A DNA stretch of 24,000 bases from Nitrososphaerota archaeon (lineage in GTDB: Archaea; Thermoproteota; Nitrososphaeria_A; Caldarchaeales; Calditenuaceae): positions 3,001 through 27,000 of the forward strand of contig JAVQSZ010000008.1 of the NCBI GenBank assembly GCA_033581555.1. Reading direction: 5' to 3'. Below, piece by piece: positions 1 through 12,603 of the stretch (its first letter is position 1; each line of letters starts with the position of its first letter). Position numbers and translations under genes: made by a program. The notes beneath the pieces were generated by a model that did not search any database, was not told where the DNA came from, and saw only the letters and a program-made list of their open reading frames with translations.

Positions 1-1049
1 TCCTCGACGAGCCGACCTCCGTGCTCACGCCACCTGAGATCGAGAGTTTCTTAGAATCCCTGAAGGCCCTCTCGAGGGAGAAGATCACCTTGGTCCCCTT
101 CGTGACCCACAAGCTCCCCGAAGTCTTCTCGATATGCGACAAGGTCACCATCTTAAGGAGGGGCAAGGTGGTCAAGACGCTCGACGTCAAGGAGACCACT
201 GCCAACCAGCTCGCTGAGTACATGGTCGGCAAGGAGGTCTCCCTCTCTATAGAGAGGCAGGACTCCATGTTAGGGCAGGTGGTCCTGAGGGTCGAGAATC
301 TCTCCGCGATGAACGACAAGGGGCTAATGGCCTTCAGCGGCGTCACCTTCTCACTGCGCGAGGGCGAGATTTTCGGCATAGCGGGCGTCAGCGGGAACGG
401 ACAGCACGAGCTGGCGGAGACCATCTTCGGCCTGAGGAGGCCCCTCTCCGGCAGGATCCTCTACAACGGTCGCGACATCACTAAGTCCTCGGTTCTCGAG
501 CGGCTACGGATGGGGATCGCCTACATTCCGCCAGAGCGGCTGGGGGTCGCTGCGATCGGCGAACTGAGCCTCGTCGACAACGTGCTGCTCGCGTACTATT
601 TCGAGGGCGCGGCGTCGAGGAACGGGTTCGTCAACTACAAGCTCGTAAAGGGTCTGACGGAACGGATCATCTCCGAGTACGGCATCGTCGCCCTCGGGCC
701 CGCGGCTAAGGCATCGCACTTGTCGGGCGGAAACCTGCAGAGGCTCATCCTCGGCCGCGTCCTCTCCAGGAACCCGAAGATCGTCATCGCAAATCTCCCG
801 ACGCAGGGGCTCGACGTGGCAGCCGCCCAGTACGTGAGGAGGAAGCTGATGGAGTGCAAGCAGCGCAGAGCCAGCGTGATCCTGATCTCGGAGGACCTCG
901 ACGAGATATTGCAACTCAGTGACAGAGTAGCTCCCATCTACGAGGGGCGTTTCGTTGACGTCCTCGAGAACGCGGCCCTCCGTAAGGAGGAGGTCGGTGC
1001 GATGATAGCTGGCGCCTACGCCGGGAGGGGGACGGGCCTTGCTCGGTGA
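1..1049 (+). CDS. ABC transporter ATP-binding protein, tandem-NBD type (BMP/CUT2-like nucleoside or sugar importer). The 5' end is truncated by the window edge.
   Basis: The frame is open from the window edge, and nt 3-23 read LDEPTSV (Walker B of the first NBD). The second NBD has GEIFGIAGVSGNGQHEL (a GxxGxGQ-type P-loop typical of RbsA/YufO-like proteins), the LSGGNLQRL signature and a PTQGLD Walker B. Two BPD_transp_2-type permeases follow directly. Confidence 0.9.
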   Translation, partial: LDEPTSVLTPPEIESFLESLKALSREKITLVPFVTHKLPEVFSICDKVTILRRGKVVKTLDVKETTANQLAEYMVGKEVSLSIERQDSMLGQVVLRVENLSAMNDKGLMAFSGVTFSLREGEIFGIAGVSGNGQHELAETIFGLRRPLSGRILYNGRDITKSSVLERLRMGIAYIPPERLGVAAIGELSLVDNVLLAYYFEGAASRNGFVNYKLVKGLTERIISEYGIVALGPAAKASHLSGGNLQRLILGRVLSRNPKIVIANLPTQGLDVAAAQYVRRKLMECKQRRASVILISEDLDEILQLSDRVAPIYEGRFVDVLENAALRKEEVGAMIAGAYAGRGTGLAR

Positions 1050-2121
1050 GGCCCACTTCAGGATCAAGCTGGAGAGGCTCCCAACCGTATCAGGTTGGAG
1101 GGCCGTCAGGGTATCGTTTTACTCGATAGCGTTGTCGTTCCTTCTGTTCAGCAGCGTGTTGATGTATGAAGGTTCCGATCCGCTCGTGGCTTATCAGAAC
1201 ATGTTCTCGTTCGCCTTCGATCCCAAGTTGGGACTTCCGCTGACCATTCATAGGTCCATGCTGATCCTCTTGTGTACCCTCGCGTTCATCGTCCCGTTGA
1301 GGGCGGGGCTCTGGAACGTCGGGATGGAGGGGCAGTTCTATCTCGGGACCATCGGAGCCTTCTTCTTTGCTTACACCTTCTCGACCTATCCCTCGGAGAT
1401 TCTGATACCCCTCATGATCTTGGGGGCGACGGGCGGAGGGGCGCTTTACGGGGCCATCGCGGGGTTCTTACGCGGTCGGTACAACGTCAACGAGGTGGTG
1501 GTGTTACTCATGCTCAACAACATAGCGTTCTGGATCGTGTACATGCTGGTGGTCGGCGGTCCGTGGGCGGGGATCGCTGAGTCGTCGAGCAGGCCGTTGC
1601 CCAAGTCTGCCCAGGCCCCGTTCATCTCCATAACGCCCTTCACGAGTTACCTCATCGTTGCCCTCGCGGTGCTCGTCTTCCTCCTCCTCACCAGGACGAC
1701 CTTCGGCTTCAAGCTCCGGGTCCTAGGACACAGCCCCGTGGCCGCGAAGATCGCCGGCATAGAGGAGTTCAAGATCTCTGTCCTCGTGATGAGCGCAGGG
1801 GGTGCTCTAGCTGGTCTAGCTGGCTACCACATGTGGGCGGGTGATCCGGCGTATTATATGATCCCGCGACCGGAGGCATACAAGGCGATAGGCGACCTGA
1901 CCTACTGGGGCATAATAATCGGGCTGGTCTGTCTGCTCAACCCCATTCCCGCAATACCGGCTTCCCTTTTCATGGGCTCTGTCATAGTCGGCTCGACCGT
2001 GCTGGTGAGGAGGCTACGGCTGCCCTTCGGGCTGGACTTCCTGCTGCTTGGGATCATCTCGATAACCTTCGCCGCCTTCCAGCTGTTCTACAACTATAGG
2101 ATCCGGGTGGTCAGGAGATGA
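1039..2121 (+). CDS. ABC transporter permease (BPD_transp_2 / YufP-NupP-like)
   Basis: 360-aa polytopic ORF containing GLWNVGMEGQFYLGTIGA, the motif typical of this permease family. The TTG start overlaps the ATPase stop by 11 nt, so the exact start is uncertain. Confidence 0.85.
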   Translation: MLGEAHFRIKLERLPTVSGWRAVRVSFYSIALSFLLFSSVLMYEGSDPLVAYQNMFSFAFDPKLGLPLTIHRSMLILLCTLAFIVPLRAGLWNVGMEGQFYLGTIGAFFFAYTFSTYPSEILIPLMILGATGGGALYGAIAGFLRGRYNVNEVVVLLMLNNIAFWIVYMLVVGGPWAGIAESSSRPLPKSAQAPFISITPFTSYLIVALAVLVFLLLTRTTFGFKLRVLGHSPVAAKIAGIEEFKISVLVMSAGGALAGLAGYHMWAGDPAYYMIPRPEAYKAIGDLTYWGIIIGLVCLLNPIPAIPASLFMGSVIVGSTVLVRRLRLPFGLDFLLLGIISITFAAFQLFYNYRIRVVRR

Positions 2122-3011
2122 TCGAGTTACCTCCTTCGCTCTGGCCCTTCACCACCAGGTTCTTAGAGGTCTCCTCGATCCTGCTCCTCGCGGCCGCCGG
2201 CGAGCTCCTCGCTCAGCGATCGGGCGTGATGAACGTAGGCATCGAGGGCCTCATGCTGTTCGGCGCCGCGACGTCGTTCATGACCGCCCAGCTCTTCGGT
2301 CCGCTCGCAGGGTTCATCGCGGGCTCGCTCGTGGGCGCCCTCCTAGGGCTCTTTCACGCCGTGATGTCGGTCTCGCTGAGGGTCAACCAGATCATCAGCG
2401 GAATGGGGGTCTGGCTGTTCGCGATGGGGTTCGTGACTTACTGGGCTGACAGGTATACCGGTCCTCTCCGGGCGTCGGTCCCGCGCATAGCCGGATTGAC
2501 CCCTGCCCTATTCATCGCGATCGCCGTGATTTTCACGATCTGGTTCGTGTTGAACAAGACGCACTTCGGCCTGAAAATACGGTCCGTGGGGGAGAACCCG
2601 GCAGCCGCCGAGGTCTCCGGTGTGAACGTCAGTAGGGTGAGGTATTTCTGCACGGTAGTCGGCGGCATGCTGGGCGGCCTTGCAGGATCGGTCCTGCTCC
2701 TCTCTTACCTCGGAGCCTGGAGTCATCTACCTACGAAAGGGCTCGGGTGGTTGGCGTTCGGGCTGGTCATGTTCTCGCTCTGGAGGCCTGGAATCCTGCT
2801 GGCTGGGGCGCTCGCCTTCGGCTTTGTCTGGCAGTTCGCGATCTCGCCAGAGTCCGTCTTCCCCGGATTCCCTGCTCCCCTGCCGGTCAACAGGATGCTC
2901 CCGTTCCTAATGACAGTCGTTATACTCACGATAATCTCGACTGAGCGTTTCAGGAGGAAATGGGCTCTGCTGAAACCAGAGGCGCTCGGACAGCCTTACA
3001 TAAAAGAGTGA
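2118..3011 (+). CDS. ABC transporter permease (BPD_transp_2 / YufQ-NupQ-like)
   Basis: 297-aa polytopic ORF containing GVMNVGIEGLMLFGAATSF. Its ATG overlaps the upstream stop as ATGA (2118-2121), which suggests translational coupling. Confidence 0.88.
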   Translation: MIELPPSLWPFTTRFLEVSSILLLAAAGELLAQRSGVMNVGIEGLMLFGAATSFMTAQLFGPLAGFIAGSLVGALLGLFHAVMSVSLRVNQIISGMGVWLFAMGFVTYWADRYTGPLRASVPRIAGLTPALFIAIAVIFTIWFVLNKTHFGLKIRSVGENPAAAEVSGVNVSRVRYFCTVVGGMLGGLAGSVLLLSYLGAWSHLPTKGLGWLAFGLVMFSLWRPGILLAGALAFGFVWQFAISPESVFPGFPAPLPVNRMLPFLMTVVILTIISTERFRRKWALLKPEALGQPYIKE

Positions 3012-3037
3012 CGAGTTCGAACGTATAAGACCGCGCT

Positions 3038-4384
3038 TTACTTCAGCAACACTATTCCGTCGAGCATGAAGTTGAACCTGCCTAGGAGCCACTCGTCGGT
3101 CGGCATCTCCTTCGCGGGCTTCACCACGGTCCCCTTCGGAGGCACCTTCAGGTTGAGCTCCGGTATCTCGATGCCCTCGCCGCTGCTGACCAGCTCGTGC
3201 TCGTAGAACGGGTCCCAGGCTCCGCTCATCATCTGAGCCCTCCTGAGCTCGATGAGCTTCAGGACCCTCTCGGGGATGAGAGGTCTGGCCCGCGGGCTGA
3301 TCGCCTCGAGTCCCACCTTCATGTTGTTCTGCAGGTCGATCGCCAGCAACCTGGTCTGGCCCGGCATGATAGGGTTGTTCTCCGGGAGCGAGATGTGCGT
3401 GTTCATGCCGAGGAAGTAGATCCTGTCGGGGTTGGTAGTGCCCGCGAGGTACTCCTTCAGGATCCGGTCGAAGAGGACCTCCCACCTGGTGTCGAAGGAC
3501 ACGGCCACGGTGTCGGTGGTGGACCACTTGTAAAGCCCCACTATGTCCATGTCCTTCCCTACGAACCAGATCTTTTTCTCCTCCGCGACCCTGAGGGGCT
3601 CGACCGAGTCCGTGTAGTGGGTCAGGACGTCTACTCCGGCGTCCACCAGCGAGAGCGATACCTCCTTCTCCTTGGGCGGATCGAACCACTCGCCGACGTA
3701 CTTGATGTACAGCGTCGCGTTGGGGTTCGCGTCCTTTATCCCCAGGTAGAACGCGGCCATCCTCCTGAAGTTCTGCACGGCCGCCGGCCCCACCGCTATC
3801 CCGATCCTGTTCCTGCGCGTTATGGCGCCCGCGATCAGGCCCTCGAGGTACATCGCCTGGTACTGTCTGATGAAAACCCTCATGAAGTTCCTTCTCGAGG
3901 AGACGTCGCTCCCGACGATGCCGAGGAAGTAGACGTTGGGGTTTTCGTCGGCTATCCTGTGGAACGCGGGGACTGCTGCGGGTTCCCAGCTCCCGAAGAT
4001 CACGTTGGCCTTGCTGACGGTGATCAGGTCCCTAGCCGCCGATATCGGGTCCTTGCCCTTCAGGATAACGCCCTCGTCGTATACGTAGTCGAACCAGGGG
4101 TAGAGCTTCTTCAACCTCTCCGCGGCCATCACCTGGCGCCCGTCCCACGTCGAGCCCTCGACGTATCCCCCCAGGACCATCCCAAGGACGACCTTCCTGC
4201 CCGCCGGGGCCTCGCGGGCCACTGTCGTCGTGAAGGTCCTCGTCTCGGTCACCGTCCTTGCAGGAGCCGCAGAGCCTCCAGCGAAGTACCCCGCGACAGC
4301 TCCCACAACTCCCGCTCCAACAGCGGTCGCCGCGACCTTTCCAGCCGTAGTTATGGCCTCCCTTCTGGTTACCTTTCTATTCAC
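3038..4384 (-). CDS. BMP-family (Med/PnrA/TmpC-like) ABC transporter substrate-binding protein
   Basis: 448-aa ORF. The N-terminus MNRKVTRREAITTAGKVAATAVGAGVV looks like a twin-arginine-type signal or membrane anchor. The body shows a periplasmic-binding fold pattern resembling the BMP family (IGIAVGPAAVQNFRRMAAFYLGIKDANPNA..., DVLTHYTDS). It starts with GTG and is convergent with the ATPase/permease genes. Confidence 0.8.
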   Translation of the reverse strand: MNRKVTRREAITTAGKVAATAVGAGVVGAVAGYFAGGSAAPARTVTETRTFTTTVAREAPAGRKVVLGMVLGGYVEGSTWDGRQVMAAERLKKLYPWFDYVYDEGVILKGKDPISAARDLITVSKANVIFGSWEPAAVPAFHRIADENPNVYFLGIVGSDVSSRRNFMRVFIRQYQAMYLEGLIAGAITRRNRIGIAVGPAAVQNFRRMAAFYLGIKDANPNATLYIKYVGEWFDPPKEKEVSLSLVDAGVDVLTHYTDSVEPLRVAEEKKIWFVGKDMDIVGLYKWSTTDTVAVSFDTRWEVLFDRILKEYLAGTTNPDRIYFLGMNTHISLPENNPIMPGQTRLLAIDLQNNMKVGLEAISPRARPLIPERVLKLIELRRAQMMSGAWDPFYEHELVSSGEGIEIPELNLKVPPKGTVVKPAKEMPTDEWLLGRFNFMLDGIVLLK

Positions 4385-4401
4385 GTGGGCTGCTTTGCGA
4401 C

Positions 4402-4415
4402 GGTTTTATTTAACC
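4402..4415 (-). promoter_or_regulatory. TATA-like box upstream of the BMP-protein gene
   Basis: The plus strand reads ggttttatttaacc, which is ggttaaataaaacc on the minus strand. It is centred about 24-25 nt upstream of the GTG at 4384, in an otherwise GC-rich context. This is consistent with a leaderless or near-leaderless transcript. Confidence 0.45.
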
Positions 4416-4427
4416 TTTTTACACTAA

Positions 4428-6752
4428 CTAATATCTTCGTCGATTAATAAATTCATAGAGCTTGTGGGGTTGCAGCGGGCTCTCGAGGGGGACGACGGCG
4501 TTGTCGAAGGCGTCCTGCACGGCTGAAGCGATGACCGCAGCTACCGGAATCGCCCCGGCCTCTCCAACGCCCTTCACGCCCAGCGGGTTGAGGGGGGACG
4601 GCGTCTCGATGTGTTTTATGGTTACCTCGGTCGGAGTCTCCAAAGCGGACGGAACGAGGTAATCGGCGAAGCTCGCGGTCAGAGGCTGACCGTTCTCGTC
4701 GTGCACGATCTCCTCGAGCAAGGAGAACCCCAGCCCGTTCGATAGACCTCCGAGGATCTGGCCTTCTACTATCACCGGATTTATGACTTTTCCACAGTCG
4801 TGGACGACTACCATCCTCAATATCTTAACGGCGCCCGTCTCTGGGTCTACCTCCACCTCCGCTGCGGCCCCTCCAGAGGAGAACACCGAGTGGACCGGGC
4901 TGAAGTACTTGGTGGCCTCGAGCCCCGGCTCCCGCTTTATCAGGCCTCTCAGGGGGCGAGAGCGCTCAGCGAGCTCACCAAGGCTAACGGACTTGTCAGG
5001 CACCCCCTTGACGTACACTCGTCCGCCCTCGAACTCCAAATCGTCGGGGCTGGTCTCGAAGATCTGCGCAGCCAGCTCTGCAGCCTTCCTCCTGACCTCC
5101 AGCGCCGCCAGGTAGACCGCGTTCCCGGCCACGGTGGCCGACCTGCTGGCGAACGTCCCAATCCCCCATGACATTTGGGCCGTGTCCCCGACGCTCACGT
5201 CCACGTCGTGCACGTCCACTCCCAGGACCTCTGAGACGATCTGAGCAAAGGTCGTGAACTGACCTTGACCCTGGGTCCCGACGCCAGTCGTGACGCTCAC
5301 CTTGCCCGACGGCGTCACCGTCACCCTTGCCATCTCGTAAGGACCTACCCCACTCCCCTCGACGTAAAGGGCTAGTCCGAGACCGACGAACCTGCCCTCC
5401 CTCCTGTACCTCTCCTTCCGCTCTGGCCATCTCCCGTAGTCTATCGTGTCGAGGAGCGTCTCGAGGAGGAGCGGGTAGTCGCCGCTGTCATACTTAACCG
5501 GCCCGCCGTCCTGATAGATTATGCCCGTGTCGTACGGGAACTCGTCGGGTTGAATGAGGTTCCGCCTCCTTACTTCAGCCCTGTCGAGTCCAAGCCTGTG
5601 TGCAGCTATGTCCATTATCCTCTCCATCACGTAAACGGCCTCCGGCCTTCCGGCACCTCTGACCGGACTTACGACGGTCTTGTTCGTGTAGACCGACGCG
5701 AACTCTACGTCGAACGCCGGAATTTTGTAAGGCCCTGGCATAGTCCCAGTCGTGATGATGGGCACCATTATCCCGTAAGGCGTGTACGCTCCCGTATCGA
5801 CTAGGAAACTGTCGCTCAGTCCCAGTATCTTCCCGTCCCTGCTAAAGGCCGCCTTCACGTAGTGAACCTGTATCCTCTGCTGGTTGGCCGCCATCATGTT
5901 CTCCCTTCTATCCTCTATCCACTTGACGGGACGGCCCAGCCTGATCGCTGCGAAGGGAACGAGGATCTCCTCGGGATAGAACAGCATTATCTTCGGACCG
6001 AACCCGCCGCCCACGTCTGGGGCTATCACCCTCACCCGATTCTCGGGGATTCCGAACAGCTTTGCAAGCCCGTTCCGGATCGGTATGGGAGCCTGAGTGG
6101 AGTCCCAGACCGTCAACGTGTCCGACCTCTCATCGTGGTAAGCCACCACGCCCCTGGTCTCTATGGACGCCCCCGCGCCCCTGTTGAAGACGATCCGCTG
6201 CTCTATCACGAGGTCTGCGCGCCTGAAGGCCTCGGAGACGTCTCCGACCCTCACCCTGTGACGGGCCGCTATGTTGTTGGGAACGTCGTCGTGAACCAGC
6301 GGAGACCCGGGCTGAATCGCCCTCTCAACGTCGACGACGGGTTCCAGCGGATCGTACTCCACGGATATCAGCTCCAGCGCGTCCCTCGCGATGTACCTGT
6401 CCTCGGCGACGACCATCGCGACCGGTTCCCCCACGTAACGCACCTTGTGCTTCGCCAGCGCGTAATGAGTCCTCATGTAAGGGATAGGATATTGGGGCAA
6501 TGGAGTGATCGAGGGGGGAAGAGGCCCGTTCAGGGCCCCCAAGTCCTCGGCCGTATAGACGGCCACCACCCCGTTCAGCCTCTCGGCCCCCGACTTGTCG
6601 ATCGATATTATCCTCGCGTGAGCGTGGGGACTCCTCAGGATCGCGGCGTAAAGCATCCGAGGGAGGACCACGTCATCAACGAACAGGCCCTTCCCCATTA
6701 GGAGCCTCCTGTCCTCCAATCTGGGCACGGAGGCTCCTATTACATTCCTCAT
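4428..6752 (-). CDS. Xanthine dehydrogenase / aldehyde oxidase / CoxL-family molybdopterin-binding (large) subunit
   Basis: 774-aa ORF. The N-terminus VPRLEDRRLLMGKGLFVDDV...MLYAAILRSPHAHARI is characteristic of this family. The active-site-loop region is VSPVRGAGRPEA, which is like the form-II AYRGAGR motif and not the form-I CODH VAYRCSFR motif. The C-terminal GVKGVGEAGAIP carries the conserved Glu. Confidence 0.92.
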   Translation of the reverse strand: MRNVIGASVPRLEDRRLLMGKGLFVDDVVLPRMLYAAILRSPHAHARIISIDKSGAERLNGVVAVYTAEDLGALNGPLPPSITPLPQYPIPYMRTHYALAKHKVRYVGEPVAMVVAEDRYIARDALELISVEYDPLEPVVDVERAIQPGSPLVHDDVPNNIAARHRVRVGDVSEAFRRADLVIEQRIVFNRGAGASIETRGVVAYHDERSDTLTVWDSTQAPIPIRNGLAKLFGIPENRVRVIAPDVGGGFGPKIMLFYPEEILVPFAAIRLGRPVKWIEDRRENMMAANQQRIQVHYVKAAFSRDGKILGLSDSFLVDTGAYTPYGIMVPIITTGTMPGPYKIPAFDVEFASVYTNKTVVSPVRGAGRPEAVYVMERIMDIAAHRLGLDRAEVRRRNLIQPDEFPYDTGIIYQDGGPVKYDSGDYPLLLETLLDTIDYGRWPERKERYRREGRFVGLGLALYVEGSGVGPYEMARVTVTPSGKVSVTTGVGTQGQGQFTTFAQIVSEVLGVDVHDVDVSVGDTAQMSWGIGTFASRSATVAGNAVYLAALEVRRKAAELAAQIFETSPDDLEFEGGRVYVKGVPDKSVSLGELAERSRPLRGLIKREPGLEATKYFSPVHSVFSSGGAAAEVEVDPETGAVKILRMVVVHDCGKVINPVIVEGQILGGLSNGLGFSLLEEIVHDENGQPLTASFADYLVPSALETPTEVTIKHIETPSPLNPLGVKGVGEAGAIPVAAVIASAVQDAFDNAVVPLESPLQPHKLYEFINRRRY

Positions 6753-6770
6753 ACGACGCCAGCTGCTGAT

Positions 6771-6803
6771 CCTTTTATTTATGTTTATTTTCTGATATAA
6801 TAG
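6771..6803. promoter_or_regulatory. AT-rich divergent promoter region between the Mo-enzyme gene (-) and the DUF2877-like gene (+)
   Basis: The sequence ccttttatttatgtttattttctgatataatag is the most AT-rich stretch nearby. The minus-strand reading ataaataaaa is centred about 25 nt upstream of the ATG at 6752. On the plus strand, ttttattta and gatataata are candidate boxes for the rightward gene. Confidence 0.5.
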
Positions 6804-6897
6804 CTTGCGATCGCACTTCGCCTCCGAAGCGGCCTCATACCTCTCTCCGCGAGAACCGCGCGCTCCACGGACTCCTTCTCAGGTGGGCCCCCGAGCT

Positions 6898-7803
6898 ATG
6901 GAACCGAGCTCGGGCGAACCTTTTTCCAGCGAGGGAGTGCGTTACGAGGCGATGACGTTCCGCGCGCTGACTCACGAGGAGGGATACAGGCTCCTGTCGG
7001 AGGGCGGTGGAACGGTTGAGGCTTTGGGAGACAGGGCATCGTATGTGATGACGCCTGTTGAAGAGGTCGTAATACTGACGGACCGGCCGCTGACGTGCTA
7101 TTCGGTCTCCTTCTTCGACGGCTGGAGGGACTTGAGGGGGATCATCGAGGAGGGTGATCGCGTCTCGGTCGAGCGATCGGCGCTGACGGTCGAAGGAAAG
7201 CTCCGGTTGCCGCTGAGGGTGCTGGGAGCTTGTCAGAGGGTATCGGGCTGCTCCGGACTGAGTCCTGAGTCCCTGAGCGCAGCGTATCGTATCTTCCGAG
7301 TGCTCGCCTCCGTCGATGAGCCAGACCCCGTCATCGAGCGGGGTGTGGAGATCCTCTCAAGCAGCACGAGCCTGATCGCGCTCCGCGAGTCTCTGAAGGA
7401 GGTTGTGGGCATGGGTAGAGGGTATACGCCGGTTGGCGACGACTTCGTCTCAGGAGTTATCATCGCCCTCAGGCTTCTTAACCGTGAACTCGACTTCTAT
7501 CCGCTGGTCGAGTACGCAAAATCTCACTCAAGGTGGCCCAGCTGGCGGATGATGGAGCACTCTCTGCACGGGTGCACGTTCTTTCCAGTAGCGCGCTTGT
7601 GTGCCTCCTTCACAAGCGGGTCGGACCCTATGCCTCACCTAACGAGAGGGTTGAGAGTTGGCAGCTCAACAGGAGTCGCCATACTGACAGGACTTCTAGA
7701 GACCCTTCACCTGTATTATAAGAGTTTATCAAGTATGTGTTTGAGTTCGTCTTCTATCTCTACAGGAGGCGTCCACTCGACGTCGACCACTTCGACTCCC
7801 TGA
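6898..7803 (+). CDS. DUF2877-like protein (YlbF/AllH family candidate)
   Basis: The motif VGMGRGYTPVGDDFVSGVIIAL, followed by VGSSTGVAILTGLL, matches my recollection of the DUF2877 signature (GxGxGxTPxGDDFxxG). The genomic context (FdrA and DUF1116 nearby) agrees. The track ORF opens at TTG 6805. I place the start at ATG 6898 because it is the first ATG, AGGTG sits 12 nt upstream, and GC3 is weaker before it. GTG 6883, ATG 6952 or TTG 6805 cannot be excluded. The last 30 or so residues are Ser/Thr-rich and lie antisense to ORF 7716-7871. Confidence 0.65.
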   Translation: MEPSSGEPFSSEGVRYEAMTFRALTHEEGYRLLSEGGGTVEALGDRASYVMTPVEEVVILTDRPLTCYSVSFFDGWRDLRGIIEEGDRVSVERSALTVEGKLRLPLRVLGACQRVSGCSGLSPESLSAAYRIFRVLASVDEPDPVIERGVEILSSSTSLIALRESLKEVVGMGRGYTPVGDDFVSGVIIALRLLNRELDFYPLVEYAKSHSRWPSWRMMEHSLHGCTFFPVARLCASFTSGSDPMPHLTRGLRVGSSTGVAILTGLLETLHLYYKSLSSMCLSSSSISTGGVHSTSTTSTP

Positions 7804-7871
7804 TCCCTGAGGCTATCGGAGAAAATCGATATACCGAGGCATAATACTTTTTTGACCTCATTCAGAGTCAT
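7716..7871 (-). CDS. 51-aa ORF resembling the detached C-terminal segment of FdrA-family proteins
   Basis: This ORF is not in the supplied track because it is too short. My hand translation is MTLNEVKKVLCLGISIFSDSLRDQGVEVVDVEWTPPVEIEDELKHILDKLL*. Its ATG (7871-7869) overlaps the FdrA TGA stop (7870-7868) as ATGA. The pattern G-[LI]-x-x-F-x-x-x-L-...-V-V-x-x-x-W-x-P matches what I recall of the extreme C-terminus of E. coli FdrA, which the 523-aa upstream ORF lacks. Confidence 0.6.
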   Translation of the reverse strand: MTLNEVKKVLCLGISIFSDSLRDQGVEVVDVEWTPPVEIEDELKHILDKLL

Positions 7872-9415
7872 GACACCTCACCCAATATGAAACTCTCGAA
7901 TAGATGATCTAACACCGACGCATCCTCCTTCGCGCAAGCGGCGGTGAATGCCGCAGCCATCGCGTTGGAGCTAGCGAGTATGAGAGGGTACTTCGCGAGC
8001 ATCGACGTCTGAGCCCACTGAGGATCCTCGCTGGTGCCGACGATCCTGATCGCAACCCTCTTACTCGCGTTGGCCTCCAACGCAGGCCCTATCTCCCCTA
8101 AGGTCCTAGAGGTTACGTCTTTCGGAGCTCCGTACCCGATGATTAAGTCAAGCGCGATCGATCCGGTCTCAGGCGACATCAGCTCCTGAGCTATCCGCCT
8201 GTTCCTCAGCGAGGGATCTATTATGGGATGAACCCTGCCAACGGTGAACTCCTCCGACCCGTAATCGACCACAGTTGCCCCCTTCGAGCGCAACGGGTCG
8301 TCGAGCTTTCTGGTCCAAGGCAGTCCTAGATTCGAGTGTACCTCGATTCCCGCCTCGTTCCACAGGAAGGCCGTCTCAGTCGCGAGCGTCCCGCCGCAAA
8401 AGAACCCACGAGGATATCTACCTCCGTCGACCTTCAGTTTGAGCGAGTCCACTTCCTTCTCAAGGGCTGAGAGGGCTCTGATGTAGATTTGAGGCGAAAT
8501 AAGAGAACAGGCTTTCAGCGCTGCTGCGTGTAAGGTTGAGAGCTGTGGATGATCGCTGATCTTCTCTTTATGTCCGAGCAGACATAGCAATAAGGGCTTG
8601 TTGATCCTTATATCTTCTAGAATTCGTCTCACAAGTTCCGCGTCTGACTGCTTAGCTAACAGCGCGACGACCTTCGTGTTCTTGTCCCTGTCCAGGAGCA
8701 TCAACGATTCACGCGTCATCAATCCGCCTACGTCTCTGGTCATGTCGCGTCCTCCCACACCGATCGCGTGGGAGATGCCCACGCCTAAGTCGTGCAGTAT
8801 GACCGACAGCTCCTGAATGCCCGAACCGGACGATGCGACGACTCCCACTGGCCCCCTGATGACCCTGTTTGCGAACCCGAAACCCACGCCCTCGATTATT
8901 GACGTCCCGGCTTCCGGCCCCATCACGAGGAGGTTCCTCGCGGCGGCCTCGCGCTTCATGGCCACCTCTACTTCTATCGGGACGTGGTCGCTGAAGACGA
9001 AGAGGTTGACTCCCTTCTCGAGGAGCTTGAACGCGACGTCCTTCACGTGATGTCCGGGGATCGATATCGACGCCATCCTTATGTCCGGGTTCTCGCGCAG
9101 GGCGTCTTCTACGCTCAGGTATCTGGCGGTTCGGGGCTTCACCTGGAACAGGACCTCTCTGGCGCTCTTCAGAACGTCCTCTGTTAGCCCGACTCCCTTG
9201 AGCGCAATCAGTATGTCGTTTGGCCCTGCACGGTCGCCCTCCGGCGTTAAGATCCCCTGCGACCTCAGGAGGTCCTTGTTGGCTTTGGTGGCCATGACGA
9301 CAGCGACCTCGATCACCCCTGGCAGCCTCTTGATCGCCTCTGAGGCCTCCATCAGCTGCACCGAATCCCGGTAGAGGCCCCGCACCACCAAGTTGATTAC
9401 ATCGACTGAACCCAC
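7868..9415 (-). CDS. fdrA: FdrA-family protein (succinyl-CoA-synthetase-alpha-like, 'acyl-CoA synthetase FdrA' / AllF-like)
   Basis: The motifs YRDSVQLM, LLVMGPEAGTSII, ASSGSGIQEL, SHAIGVGGRDMTRDVGG and EFTVGRVHPIIDPSLRN closely parallel E. coli FdrA as I recall it. The track ORF extends to TTG 9439, but that codon abuts the TATA box at 9441-9450. GTG 9415 gives an N-terminus matching homologues in length and sits about 30 nt from the TATA centre. Confidence 0.88.
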   Translation of the reverse strand: MGSVDVINLVVRGLYRDSVQLMEASEAIKRLPGVIEVAVVMATKANKDLLRSQGILTPEGDRAGPNDILIALKGVGLTEDVLKSAREVLFQVKPRTARYLSVEDALRENPDIRMASISIPGHHVKDVAFKLLEKGVNLFVFSDHVPIEVEVAMKREAAARNLLVMGPEAGTSIIEGVGFGFANRVIRGPVGVVASSGSGIQELSVILHDLGVGISHAIGVGGRDMTRDVGGLMTRESLMLLDRDKNTKVVALLAKQSDAELVRRILEDIRINKPLLLCLLGHKEKISDHPQLSTLHAAALKACSLISPQIYIRALSALEKEVDSLKLKVDGGRYPRGFFCGGTLATETAFLWNEAGIEVHSNLGLPWTRKLDDPLRSKGATVVDYGSEEFTVGRVHPIIDPSLRNRRIAQELMSPETGSIALDLIIGYGAPKDVTSRTLGEIGPALEANASKRVAIRIVGTSEDPQWAQTSMLAKYPLILASSNAMAAAFTAACAKEDASVLDHLFESFILGEVS

Positions 9416-9440
9416 GTCAGTCGCGCTCTGGAGGTGCAAT

Positions 9441-9450
9441 ATTTATATTA
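9441..9450. promoter_or_regulatory. Shared, near-palindromic TATA box for the divergent fdrA-like and cyclase genes
   Basis: The sequence atttatatta is the only AT-rich element in the short divergent gap. GTG 9415 (minus strand) lies about 30 nt from its centre and ATG 9478 (plus strand) about 32 nt. This fits archaeal TATA-to-TSS spacing with leaderless mRNAs in both directions. Confidence 0.55.
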
Positions 9451-9477
9451 GTGTCCCGAGGCGTGATGATCGCGACC

Positions 9478-10275
9478 ATGTCTGCCGTCGTAGATTTATC
9501 AAAGGTGAAAATATATGACTTGTCCCAGCCGACCAGCGCCAGAGCTCCGCCGTTCATGTATTACCCTCCGTTCAAATGGACGTGGATCAAGAGGCTTGGC
9601 GAGCATGGCGTCAACGCGATGTACATCGAGGGGCCGCTTCACACGGGCACACACTTCGACGGCCAGCTGCACTTCATGACCGGAGGGAAGGACATAGCCA
9701 GCATCGACGTCAGCTACTTCATCGGTGAGGGGGTCATAATCGACATCAGCAAGCACGTCGGCGACTACGACATCTATACTAGCGACGTGATCGAAGAAGC
9801 GGCGAGGGAGGCGGGCCTTCAGATAAAGCCCGACGACATACTCCTCATCTACACGGGTTACAGCCGCTACGCATGGTGCGGCCCGGAGCCCGACGAGGTG
9901 CGGTACATGTGCAAGCACCCGGGTCCGGACATCAGGTTCGCGAGGTGGTGCATAGAGAAGAGGATCAGGTGGCTCGGCGTCGACGCGATGTCACAGGACC
10001 ATCCGCTGAACACCGTTGTCAGGAGGGCGAGGCCCGACCTGGTGGCTGAGGCTGAGAGGAAGTGGGGCAAGAAGATCGACGAGGTGTTGCCCTGGCCCGA
10101 GAACTACCAGGTGATGCACGTCATGCTCTTCCCGAGGATGATTCTTCACGTCGAGAACCTGGGCGGGGAGATCGAGAAGGTCGCCAACAGGAGGTGCCTG
10201 ATCATAGCGCTGCCGTTCAAGTTCGAGGGGGGAGAGAGCGCGTACTGCCGAGTGGTGGCCCTCACCGCTGAATGA
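9478..10275 (+). CDS. Cyclase-family protein (PF04199-type metal-dependent amidohydrolase, kynurenine formamidase / isatin hydrolase-like)
   Basis: HTGTHFDGQLHF matches the family's HxGTHxDxxxH metal-binding motif. LGVDAMSQDHP and HVENL are also family-like. The track ORF opens at GTG 9451, directly abutting the TATA box, so ATG 9478 (MSAVVDLSKVKIYDLSQP...) is the likely start. Confidence 0.8.
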   Translation: MSAVVDLSKVKIYDLSQPTSARAPPFMYYPPFKWTWIKRLGEHGVNAMYIEGPLHTGTHFDGQLHFMTGGKDIASIDVSYFIGEGVIIDISKHVGDYDIYTSDVIEEAAREAGLQIKPDDILLIYTGYSRYAWCGPEPDEVRYMCKHPGPDIRFARWCIEKRIRWLGVDAMSQDHPLNTVVRRARPDLVAEAERKWGKKIDEVLPWPENYQVMHVMLFPRMILHVENLGGEIEKVANRRCLIIALPFKFEGGESAYCRVVALTAE

Positions 10276-10281
10276 GCGGGC

Positions 10282-11544
10282 ATGGAGGCGCTCAAAGAGG
10301 AGATCGAGAAGGCGAACAACAAGTGCCTCGACCTGATGATGGAGGCGAGGCCCCTTCTCGTGGACGTCGTAGAGGCGCGGAAGGTCATACCATTCCTCGC
10401 GAAGGAAAACTGCCTCACGCACGCGGGACCGCCGATCGACTGGGAGAGGGCCAGTGGTCCCCTGAGGGGTGCGATAATCGGGGCCGCGATCTACGAAGGA
10501 TGGGCCGAGAACGAGGAGGAGGCGACCAGGCTCGCGGAGAGGGGTGAGATAGTCCTCGAGCCCAACCACCACCACTCGGCGGTCGGTCCGATGGCTGGCG
10601 TCATATCCCCGTCGATGAAGGTCTTCGTGGTCAGGGATAGCGACCTGAGGACTTACAGTAACCTCAACGAGGGACTTGGGAAGGTCCTGAGATACGGCGC
10701 CTACTCCCCCGACGTGTTAGAACGCCTCCGGTTCCTGAACGAGGTCGTCGGCTCGGTTCTCTCGGAAGCGGTGAAGGAGCACGTCCGCGATAAGGGGGGT
10801 ATAGACTTGAAGAACATAATGGCTCAGGCGGTCCACATGGGCGACGAGTGTCACAACCGGAACGTCGCGTCAACGTCTCTGTTCTACAGAGAGATTTCGC
10901 CCTATGTTATCGACGTGACTGATAGAGAGACGGCCAAAACGGTGCTCAGGACGATAGACTCCAACATCTTGTTCTTCCTGAACATGGCGATGGCGGCCTG
11001 TAAGCTGATGGCTGATAGGGCCCACGGCGTCAGGCACAGCACGATCGTGACCGCGATTGCGAGGAACGGCACGGACATCGGCATCAGGGTGAGTGGGCTC
11101 GGGGACCGGTGGTTCACGGCTCCGGCGACTGTACCGAAGGGGCTGTACTTCCCCGGATTCGGGGAGTCTGACGCTAACCCCGACATAGGCGACAGCACGA
11201 TAACCGAGACCGTCGGACTCGGTGCGGCTGCTCTCGCAGCTAGCCCGGCGATCGTGAAGTTCATCGGCGGGGACGCGAAGACAGCGATCGAGATCACCGA
11301 CAGGATGGCGAAGATCTGTCACGGCAGGCACCGTTACTTCACGATCCCCTACCTCGAGTTCGAGGGTACCCCCACTGGCATAGACATCAGGAGGGTGCTG
11401 CGACTCGGTCTTCCGCCCGTTGCCGACACGGGCATAGCGCACAGGGAGGCAGGGGTGGGGCAGATAGGCGCAGGGATCGTCGAGCTGCCGATCGAGCCCT
11501 TCAAACAGGCCTTGAGGAAGTACGCCGAGGTCTACGGGGTTTGA
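10282..11544 (+). CDS. DUF1116-family protein (YlbE/AllG-like)
   Basis: The 420-aa length matches the roughly 419 aa of E. coli YlbE. The N-terminal region ...VIPFLAKENCLTHAGPPIDWERASGPLRGAIIGAAIYEGWA resembles the DUF1116 family as I recall it. The start is 6 nt after the cyclase stop, so the two genes form an operon. Confidence 0.7.
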   Translation: MEALKEEIEKANNKCLDLMMEARPLLVDVVEARKVIPFLAKENCLTHAGPPIDWERASGPLRGAIIGAAIYEGWAENEEEATRLAERGEIVLEPNHHHSAVGPMAGVISPSMKVFVVRDSDLRTYSNLNEGLGKVLRYGAYSPDVLERLRFLNEVVGSVLSEAVKEHVRDKGGIDLKNIMAQAVHMGDECHNRNVASTSLFYREISPYVIDVTDRETAKTVLRTIDSNILFFLNMAMAACKLMADRAHGVRHSTIVTAIARNGTDIGIRVSGLGDRWFTAPATVPKGLYFPGFGESDANPDIGDSTITETVGLGAAALAASPAIVKFIGGDAKTAIEITDRMAKICHGRHRYFTIPYLEFEGTPTGIDIRRVLRLGLPPVADTGIAHREAGVGQIGAGIVELPIEPFKQALRKYAEVYGV

Positions 11545-11631
11545 ACGCAGCAACTCCGTGCGGCGACCCGCGACCGCCCTTCGGACTCTTCGCCAATCGC
11601 TCGGCGCCTCGCGACGTGATAGATCGCTCGA

Positions 11632-11719
11632 TGGACCGGGCGGGATTCGAACCCGCGACCTCCCGCAATTTGGAATGCCGTCTCGCCAAGCGGGCGATCT
11701 ACCACTGATCTACCGGCCC
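11632..11719 (-). tRNA. tRNA-Ala (anticodon GGC) with a 16-nt intron in the anticodon loop; CCA not encoded
   Basis: The minus strand reads GGGCCGG-TA-GATC-AGTGGTA-GATC-G-CCCGC-TTGGCG[intron region AGACGGCATTCCAAATT]GCGGG-AGGTC-GCGGG-TTCGAAT-CCCGC-CCGGTCC-A. All four stems pair. The G3:U70 Ala identity pair is present. The intron contains CCAA, complementary to TTGG of the loop/anticodon. Confidence 0.9.
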
Positions 11720-11741
11720 GCCATCATTTAACATCAGAGCA

Positions 11742-11750
11742 GAATTTTAG
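11742..11750 (-). promoter_or_regulatory. TATA-like box for tRNA-Ala
   Basis: The minus strand reads ctaaaattc, centred about 27 nt upstream of tRNA position 1 (11719). Confidence 0.45.
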
Positions 11751-11793
11751 CCTCGCTCTCCGATAGCCTATAAACTCGGTCTATTGGGTGGGC

Positions 11794-12603
11794 TCAGACC
11801 CGAGAGAGAAGCCTGAGGAGTTCTCCTGCTCGCCTCTCACATTCCGAGAGGTCCTCGTTGAGGGCCCACACCCAGTAGAGCTGGAAGACGCCCAAGGTGA
11901 TCAGCGTCAGGAGGGCGTAGAGCAACGTGCTCCTCTTCCCGATCCTTCTCCTCTTGACTGAGTCGCTGACGGGCACTAACCTCGAGACCGACTCGAAGCT
12001 GAAGCTCACTGACCGGTCGAGGACGCCGAGGAGCCCGTTCAGCGAGTGAAGGGCGTAGAGCAGCAAGACCACGTGGAGGAGGGCGATGACCAAACCGACC
12101 GTTCCCAGCGCCATGATCAGCGAGAGCTCCTCGACGGCCGCGAGGGGGTCCGCCGCGACCTCCAGAGCGAGCGAGGAGACGACCGTCGATAGCGGTGCAG
12201 ACGCGACGAGGAGCGCCCCAGCGACGACCAGAAGGGGCCACGGGTTCTGGAGGACGGAAGGGTTAGCCAGCTCGTCCGAGACCCTTTCGAGGCTTCCGGC
12301 GACCAGCGCCCGAGTCGCATCTCCCGACGACTTGAGCTCGACCGACTTCCCGCGCAGCGCGTCGACCAACTGAGCCGCCGTGGACCTCGCCTCGGACCTC
12401 ATTACGCCGAGGAAGTAGACCGTCATCAGGCCCCAGAGGAGACCGATAGAGGTCGAGGCGACCGACAACCCGAATACGGTGGGAGGGGGGTCCTCACCTG
12501 TGAGGCCGGCCGAGAGCTGAACCAGAACCCATGGAACTGAGATCGTGCCCCCCACGAACCAGACCAGCACCCAGACGACCATCAACGGCCTTGGGACCGC
12601 CAT
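11794..12603 (-). CDS. Hypothetical polytopic membrane protein with a DUF4234-like C-terminal segment
   Basis: 269-aa ORF with several hydrophobic helices. The C-terminal STLLYALLTLITLGVFQLYWVWALNEDL resembles the DUF4234 motif as I recall it. Its start overlaps the 3' end of sppA by 22 nt, which implies co-transcription. Confidence 0.6.
   Translation of the reverse strand: MAVPRPLMVVWVLVWFVGGTISVPWVLVQLSAGLTGEDPPPTVFGLSVASTSIGLLWGLMTVYFLGVMRSEARSTAAQLVDALRGKSVELKSSGDATRALVAGSLERVSDELANPSVLQNPWPLLVVAGALLVASAPLSTVVSSLALEVAADPLAAVEELSLIMALGTVGLVIALLHVVLLLYALHSLNGLLGVLDRSVSFSFESVSRLVPVSDSVKRRRIGKRSTLLYALLTLITLGVFQLYWVWALNEDLSECERRAGELLRLLSRV

Follow-up and report, generated by a model that had tools for sequence, protein, structure and literature searches.

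A 51-codon open reading frame overlapping an allF-like gene in a Caldarchaeales archaeon very probably encodes the FdrA/YahG terminal module as a separate micro-protein

We analyzed a window of 24,000 nucleotides (nt) from the draft genome of a Nitrososphaerota archaeon of the order Caldarchaeales (assembly GCA_033581555.1; 1.43 Mb in 72 contigs, 90.6% complete), corresponding to positions 3,001 to 27,000 of contig JAVQSZ010000008.1. On its reverse strand, the window carries a large gene for an FdrA/AllF-like protein and, at the 3′ end of this gene, a 51-codon open reading frame (ORF) with the product MTLNEVKKVLCLGISIFSDSLRDQGVEVVDVEWTPPVEIEDELKHILDKLL and a TAA stop codon at 7718-7716 (Table 1). 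The ATG of the small ORF (7871-7869) overlaps the TGA (7870-7868) with which the large ORF terminates (...GEVS-TGA), and the frame of the small ORF is closed by another TGA at 7880-7878, three codons 5′ of the ATG. A preliminary description of this stretch had reported the small ORF, the ATGA overlap, and the upstream TGA, and every coordinate and feature proved correct on re-reading. The large ORF spans 523 amino acids (aa) in its longest form, or 515 aa if translation begins at a GTG at 9415; its product is 36% identical to Escherichia coli YahF and 31% identical to E. coli FdrA. With 67 ORFs of 30 aa or longer overlapping positions 5000-12000, a length of 51 codons is not in itself significant, and the case for the small gene therefore rests on homology and conservation. 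On these grounds, we consider the ORF very probably to be a genuine protein-coding gene, which supplies an approximately 45-residue beta-alpha-beta-alpha module as a separate micro-protein.

Table 1. Features of the allF locus, in coordinates of the window
Feature	Position	Strand	Basis or remark
Small gene, free-standing FdrA C-terminal/YahG N-terminal module	7716..7871	-	51 codons plus TAA; ORF, profile, and orthologue evidence
ATGA stop/start overlap of the large and small genes	7868..7871	-	Direct sequence reading
Shine-Dalgarno-like GAGGTG within the last codons of the large gene	7874..7879	-	2 nt before the ATG
FdrA/AllF-like large subunit without C-terminal module	7868..9439	-	Pfam Ligase_CoA, CoA_binding; NF004760
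AllH/DUF2877-like gene, convergent	6952..7803	+	Pfam AllH (PF11392), E 8.6e-16
88-nt convergent coding overlap of the AllH tail and the small gene	7716..7803	both	ORF coordinates
Cyclase-family (PF04199) hydrolase gene	9451..10275	+	Pfam Cyclase, E 1.4e-35; between allF and allG, just upstream of allG
AllG/DUF1116-like gene, 420 aa, without N-terminal module	10282..11544	+	Pfam AllG (PF06545), E 4e-90

The likeness of the small product to the C-terminus of E. coli FdrA, which the preliminary description had noted, is borne out by profile comparisons. Against the NCBIfam model of FdrA (NF004760, 555 positions), the product of the large ORF matches profile positions 5-499 (E = 5e-96), and the 51-mer alone matches positions 507-554 (E = 0.0013), its sole match among 18,950 models, so that the pair of ORFs is colinear with a single-chain FdrA. 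A profile built from an alignment of 18 orthologous small proteins (A1), which the 51-mer of the window, itself one of its members, matches with E = 1.4e-25, has as its top match in the PDB the crystal chain of E. coli FdrA (3dmy_A, residues 428-473 of 480). In hhalign, A1 aligns with residues 509-554 of E. coli FdrA with E = 4.8e-6, and a larger alignment of 61 sequences does so with E = 5.4e-6, at a module identity of about 26%. The profile of the small proteins also aligns with residues 4-52 of E. coli YahG (hhalign E = 3.2e-11, probability 97%), and BLASTP aligns the 51-mer itself with this protein at 40% identity over 42 residues (E = 2e-10). Judged by these alignments, the module is closer to the N-terminus of YahG than to the C-terminus of FdrA, and the small product can equally be read as an N-terminus split off from DUF1116 proteins of the YahG type. 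Across the full-length alignment of the 51-mer with 60 database members, six residues of the module (G13, F17, Q24, W33, P35, and L47) are invariant in all 61 sequences. In a Pfam scan, the sole match of the 51-mer, to a B12-binding family, is not significant (E = 0.19) and was dismissed as meaningless.

The near-invariant Asn of the V-x-N-I/V-G-L motif is a Cys at codon 11 of the small ORF (7839-7841), and the Cys form (VLCLG, VLCIG, or VVCVG) is shared by each of the six 51-aa orthologues, which come from this genus and a neighboring family. Other close relatives carry Asn, Ser, or Ala at this position.

Orthologous loci were compared for a split or a fused gene in 60 Caldarchaeales relatives together with the source genome (61 genomes) and in a sample of 400 genomes from the phylum. 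Significant matches to the 51-mer were obtained in 19 of the 61 Caldarchaeales genomes, each in an open frame of 50-91 aa, and the large gene is present in exactly the same 19, with the small ORF separate in every carrier. In the 18 relatives among them, which belong to 4 families of the order, a small ORF of 48-65 aa lies directly 3′ of the large ORF, and the phylum sample contributed 9 further free-standing copies from other families; no module fused to AllF was found in the 401 genomes of the phylum. The junction between the two genes takes several forms: an ATGA overlap in the window and in loci L004-L007 and L010, a TTGA overlap with a TTG start in L008 and L011, and a spacer of 8-15 nt bearing a GGAGG/GGTGA-type motif, followed by an ATG, in L012-L020. 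The small frame is offset from the large one by 0, 1, or 2 nt, and in some of the in-frame cases two stop codons intervene. A split with such varied junctions, in each of the three frame relations, cannot be attributed to one indel or one recoding event. When related loci were sought with the large protein, a single true relative was recovered. “Candidatus Caldarchaeales archaeon DT_Bin_10” is the nearest relative in public data; its large protein is 83% identical, and this sister species has an identical ATGA architecture. Among the six 51-aa orthologues, nonsynonymous differences (pN) amount to 0.13-0.22 per site and synonymous differences (pS) to 0.69-1.0 (saturated), a pattern indicating that the module is under purifying selection. 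Thus, of the three explanations offered in the preliminary description, a genuine gene split is supported by the conservation of the split, the diversity of its junctions and frames, the purifying selection, and the co-occurrence in 19 of 19 genomes, whereas a frameshift and a sequencing indel are rejected on the comparative data (see below).

Free-standing copies of the module form a large family. When the proteins of 28-89 aa in a collection of 5.8 billion were searched with the profile, at least 1001 clusters of free-standing homologues were recovered at E ≤ 1e-3, mostly 57 aa long and originating from Nitrososphaerota, Caldarchaeales/Aigarchaeota, Thermoplasmata, and bacteria, and a HMMER search of 1.84 billion representatives yielded 1056 matches at E ≤ 1e-3, with nearly all of the top 150 being 46-125 aa long. 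NCBI labels some of the homologues “fdrA domain protein” and others hypothetical, and the Ca. Caldarchaeum orthologue is present in the protein collection as a “hypothetical protein.” The small ORF of the window shares the features of this family, namely, a length of 46-65 aa, a start codon of its own, a match to the profile, and a position directly 3′ of a module-less fdrA. The kind is hence already known to databases and the present copy simply unannotated, and the arrangement is a widespread, ordinary case of gene fission/fusion, not special to the source genome. The exact 51-mer and that of the sister species are absent from a collection of 15 billion proteins, in keeping with the earlier suspicion that annotation pipelines may overlook the ORF. 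Full-text literature searches found no paper that uses the term “fdrA domain protein” or treats the split, which is mentioned neither in the study of AllFGH (PMC11326118) nor in a paper on allFGHK in metagenome-assembled genomes (MAGs) of nitrifiers.

Translation signals at the junction were assessed against the 16S rRNA of the same genome, the 3′ end of which reads ...GGATCACCTCC. The GAGGTG embedded in the large gene is a perfect 6-nt complement to this end, and complementarity of such length occurs at 4.7% of the control positions in the same gene. Among the 26 free-standing loci, 18 have a Shine-Dalgarno (SD) match of at least 5 nt located 5′ of the small gene, and the match extends over 6-10 nt in 13 of them. 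Stop/start overlaps permit termination-reinitiation coupling in archaea and bacteria, and the two hallmarks of a translationally coupled pair, overlapping stop and start codons and an upstream SD motif, are both present at this junction. The small gene appears, from its sequence context, to possess a dedicated ribosome-binding site, embedded in the final codons of the large gene, in addition to the stop/start overlap. We envisage that it would be transcribed together with the large allF-like gene and translated from its own ATG, a step that the embedded GAGGTG and the ATGA overlap probably serve; such an arrangement would hold its output at roughly 1:1 with the large subunit.

The module is found in three architectures, namely, free, at the C-terminus of AllF (E. 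coli FdrA and proteins P0145 and P0148), and at the N-terminus of AllG/YahG. In loci L040 and L043, the free module is one of three separate genes in the order allF, small gene, allG. In L046 and L047, which belong to the same phylum, the module constitutes the N-terminus of a 462-471-aa AllG encoded after a module-less allF, and in L046 the allF and module-allG genes share an ATGA overlap. Queried with this N-terminus, the protein collection yielded at least 75 PF06545 proteins of 455-485 aa that carry the module (Bathyarchaeia and Solirubrobacteraceae), together with two FdrA proteins (575 and 586 aa) that have a near-identical module at the C-terminus. E. coli K-12 carries both fused states, one at the C-terminus of FdrA (555 aa) and the other at the N-terminus of YahG (472 aa), the DUF1116 paralogue encoded in the yahEFG cluster; its YahF (515 aa) lacks the module, its YlbE/AllG is 419 aa long, and the yahF and yahG genes overlap by TGATG behind a GGGGAGGAAG motif (L055, 4779-7744). 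The order allF-module-allG is constant across the free, AllF-fused, and AllG-fused cases, and stop codons alone shift. In the family represented in the window and one neighboring family, allG has relocated and allH is convergent to the small gene, which stays beside allF. In L012-L020 (family f3), tblastn at 1e-4 revealed no allG and no allH in the 1.5 kb that follow the small gene, and the downstream gene order there therefore differs again. The Pfam list of the C-terminally fused FdrA proteins P0145 and P0148 includes PF27530.1, which is not listed for the free or AllG-fused proteins, and this family probably covers another region of FdrA.

AlphaFold2 modeling of the 51-mer with the 61 sequences gave a mean predicted local distance difference test (pLDDT) score of 85.8, with strands at residues 8-12 and 27-31 and helices at 18-23 and 37-50. 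A natural module-AllG fusion (P0123) was modeled with a pLDDT of 94.6 and a predicted template modeling (TM) score of 0.90, and the same beta-alpha-beta-alpha arrangement is predicted at its residues 7-47. The AllG core of this model superposes with a TM score of 0.96 on PDB entry 3CLQ, the structure of a 420-aa DUF1116 protein without the module. The AllG core being complete in 3CLQ, the module is an add-on and not a missing part of the AllG fold.

We propose that the module would most likely act as a small adaptor subunit, docking on the AllF-like protein and tethering the AllG-like protein in a structural role within a putative AllF-AllG-AllH-type carbamoyl-transferring complex. This role is suggested because the module is fused to either partner in different lineages and the gene order is constant; its probable partner in the source genome is the AllG-like protein encoded in the window. 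That the small protein is an adaptor between the AllF-like and AllG-like subunits, made in step with AllF, seems to us about as apt to be right as wrong. The wider proposition, in which FdrA/DUF1116/DUF2877-type enzymes always require the module as a fourth component, a detachable tether of an AllF-like dimer to an AllG-like dimer, we likewise regard as evenly poised.

Several observations weigh against this interpretation or parts of it. The tethering is deduced from fusion patterns and gene order alone, and at this locus allG is not beside the small gene, lying on the opposite strand past the cyclase gene. In the P0123 model, the module is predicted with pLDDT values of 63-92, compared with 95-98 for the AllG core, so that its docking is uncertain. 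A Foldseek search with the model of the 51-mer ranked 3dmy_A first, with a match that is not significant (E = 0.44) and a root-mean-square deviation of 6.2 Å. The spacing between GAGGTG and the start codon is short. The alignment of the 51-mer to the C-terminus of FdrA, moreover, stands by profiles (NF004760 and hhalign) but fails in a direct comparison, BLASTP giving no alignment with E. coli FdrA, so that this link needs profiles.

Some of the same evidence is compatible with a different role, in which the gene is real and the module serves AllF only, for example, in dimer stability or folding, and the fusions to AllG/YahG are accidents of gene order. In the window, the small gene has remained with allF while allG has moved away, the core fold of AllG is complete without the module (3CLQ), and the crystal structure of E. 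coli FdrA (3DMY), which contains no AllG, includes the module sequence in the deposited chain, with the resolved chain being the best fold match. However, the N-terminal fusion to DUF1116 has a wide and stable distribution that takes in archaea as well as bacteria (at least 75 clusters, in addition to E. coli YahG), and one would not expect such fusions to retain a piece that has nothing to do with AllG. Furthermore, YahF, the AllF partner of a fused AllG, does without the module. We regard a module dedicated to AllF as possible but rather doubtful.

If instead the small ORF were a decaying, non-functional remnant of the tail of a once-fused FdrA, its lack of annotation in the source genome and the sister species would be readily understood, as would the AllH ORF, whose tail overlaps it on the opposite strand. 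This overlap endows AllH with a Ser/Thr-rich tail of about 30 residues (…KSLSSMCLSSSSISTGGVHSTSTTSTP), and similarly long tails of this kind are found in the sister species and in L006 and L010. In L007, L008, L009, and L011, AllH ends 0-16 nt into the small gene, with the small ORF retained throughout. What varies in the overlap is thus the AllH tail, apparently an incidental antisense read-on, and the constrained partner is the small ORF. Decay is further contradicted by the strong conservation of the amino acid sequence against saturated synonymous sites, the six invariant residues, the strict co-occurrence with the large gene, and the confident AlphaFold2 fold, and we judge it very improbable.

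Recoding fares no better. A programmed ribosomal frameshift (-1/+2) near the stop codon could in principle yield one protein of FdrA length from the two overlapping ORFs, and fused forms do exist elsewhere, as in E. coli FdrA. Such a shift would have to fall within the approximately 9 nt (GGTGTCATG) between the TGA codons of the small and large frames, in which we found no slippery heptamer. In relatives, small genes in frames 0, +1, and +2 behind stop-bearing spacers leave no room for a conserved recoding mechanism, and most junctions offer an ATG or TTG start with an SD-like motif (a match of at least 5 nt in 18 of the 26 loci), leaving a frameshift exceedingly improbable. Stop-codon readthrough was rejected on the comparative data for junctions and selection. 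Finally, a 1-2-nt sequencing or assembly error that broke up one continuous FdrA of about 570 aa, as a 72-contig draft and a 4-nt overlap of ORFs in different frames might suggest, has practically no chance of being correct and is effectively refuted by the same split in 27 other genomes of the phylum sample with differing junctions in all three frame relations, by the several loci in which spacers bear their own SD motif and ATG together with two in-frame stops, by the failure to find an AllF-fused form in 401 genomes of the phylum, and by the ATGA architecture shared with the sister species.

The genes surrounding the allF locus were surveyed at positions 1-6752 and 9451-11544 of the window. 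The AllG-like protein is 46% identical to E. coli YlbE and 43% to YahG, with which it aligns from residue 58 of YahG onward. The AllH-like ORF is open from a TTG at 6805 (332 aa), and its Pfam domain stops at ORF residue 300, at about nt 7705. Since the AllH orthologue of the sister species is 283 aa long and begins at a Met equivalent to the ATG at 6952, this ATG is the likely start, and the first 49 codons of the ORF from 6805 are probably not translated. The carbamate kinase homologue of the genome, 47% identical to E. coli YbcF/AllK, is encoded on another contig (G000:C7:90354-91286). Positions 1-6752, next to the allF locus, encode a BMP-type binding protein, an ABC ATPase, and two permeases, together resembling a nucleoside-type transporter, as well as a subunit of an XDH/CoxL-family molybdenum hydroxylase. 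The gene context fits a cluster for nucleobase/ureide breakdown.

The conserved gene for a 51-aa subunit is absent from the protein sets of the source genome and the sister species, and a plausible reason is that the 88-nt overlap with AllH and the ATGA junction made gene callers skip it; reconstructions of archaeal “allFGH” pathways overlook the small gene. The occurrence of the module free, on AllF, or on AllG/YahG provides a cheap and concrete hypothesis on which surfaces meet, and the locus offers a natural “split” system in which this hypothesis on the AllF-AllG interface could be tested. We regard the three-way architecture as a useful lead on that interface. Should the tether proposal be true, the three architectures would mark the AllF-AllG interface of oxamate carbamoyltransferase and of uncharacterized relatives such as YahEFG.

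Among known systems, the AllFGH oxamate carbamoyltransferase (Kim & Kim 2024, PMC11326118) is represented at the locus by homologues of all three components, AllF, AllG, and AllH. Genes were first assigned to this enzyme in 2024, and its quaternary structure was reported to be unresolved (PMC11326118). Unlike in that system, the archaeal genes do not form a single allFGH-allK operon but are distributed over the two strands as at least three units, with the carbamate kinase gene elsewhere in the genome.

The large subunit, by its Pfam domains CoA_binding, Succ_CoA_lig, and Ligase_CoA, belongs to the fold group of the nucleoside diphosphate (NDP)-forming acyl-coenzyme A (CoA) synthetases. In this superfamily, which includes succinyl-CoA synthetase (SCS) and ADP-forming acetyl-CoA synthetase, domains are spread over different polypeptides depending on the lineage. 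The piece shifted in the present case differs in being a tiny accessory module outside the catalytic domains and not one of the five canonical subdomains. The closest precedent for its position is E. coli FdrA, the C-terminal 48 or so residues of which share the pattern (V/I)xN(I/V)GL..F...L..Q.V.VV.V.W.P with the small protein and occupy the same place, directly after the SCS-alpha-like body of FdrA, whereas here the module forms a polypeptide by itself, initiated at a start codon in another frame. The closest match from a characterized organism is provided by the N-terminal 55 or so residues of E. coli YahG, which represent the same module. YahF, like the large ORF of the window, is without the module, and the yahF/yahG pair is also joined by a stop/start overlap; in YahG, however, the module is covalently attached to DUF1116, whereas the DUF1116 gene of the window, found on the opposite strand at a distance of about 2.4 kb, is free of it. 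The micro-proteins labeled “fdrA domain protein” by NCBI in MAGs (for example, P0003, P0021, and P0082) belong to the same family, with 46-65 aa and a location after a module-less fdrA. Most of these are 57 aa long and have an additional KLF-containing N-terminal turn and an SD-bearing spacer, whereas this genus has the 51-aa form, with the ATGA overlap and a Cys in place of the near-invariant Asn.

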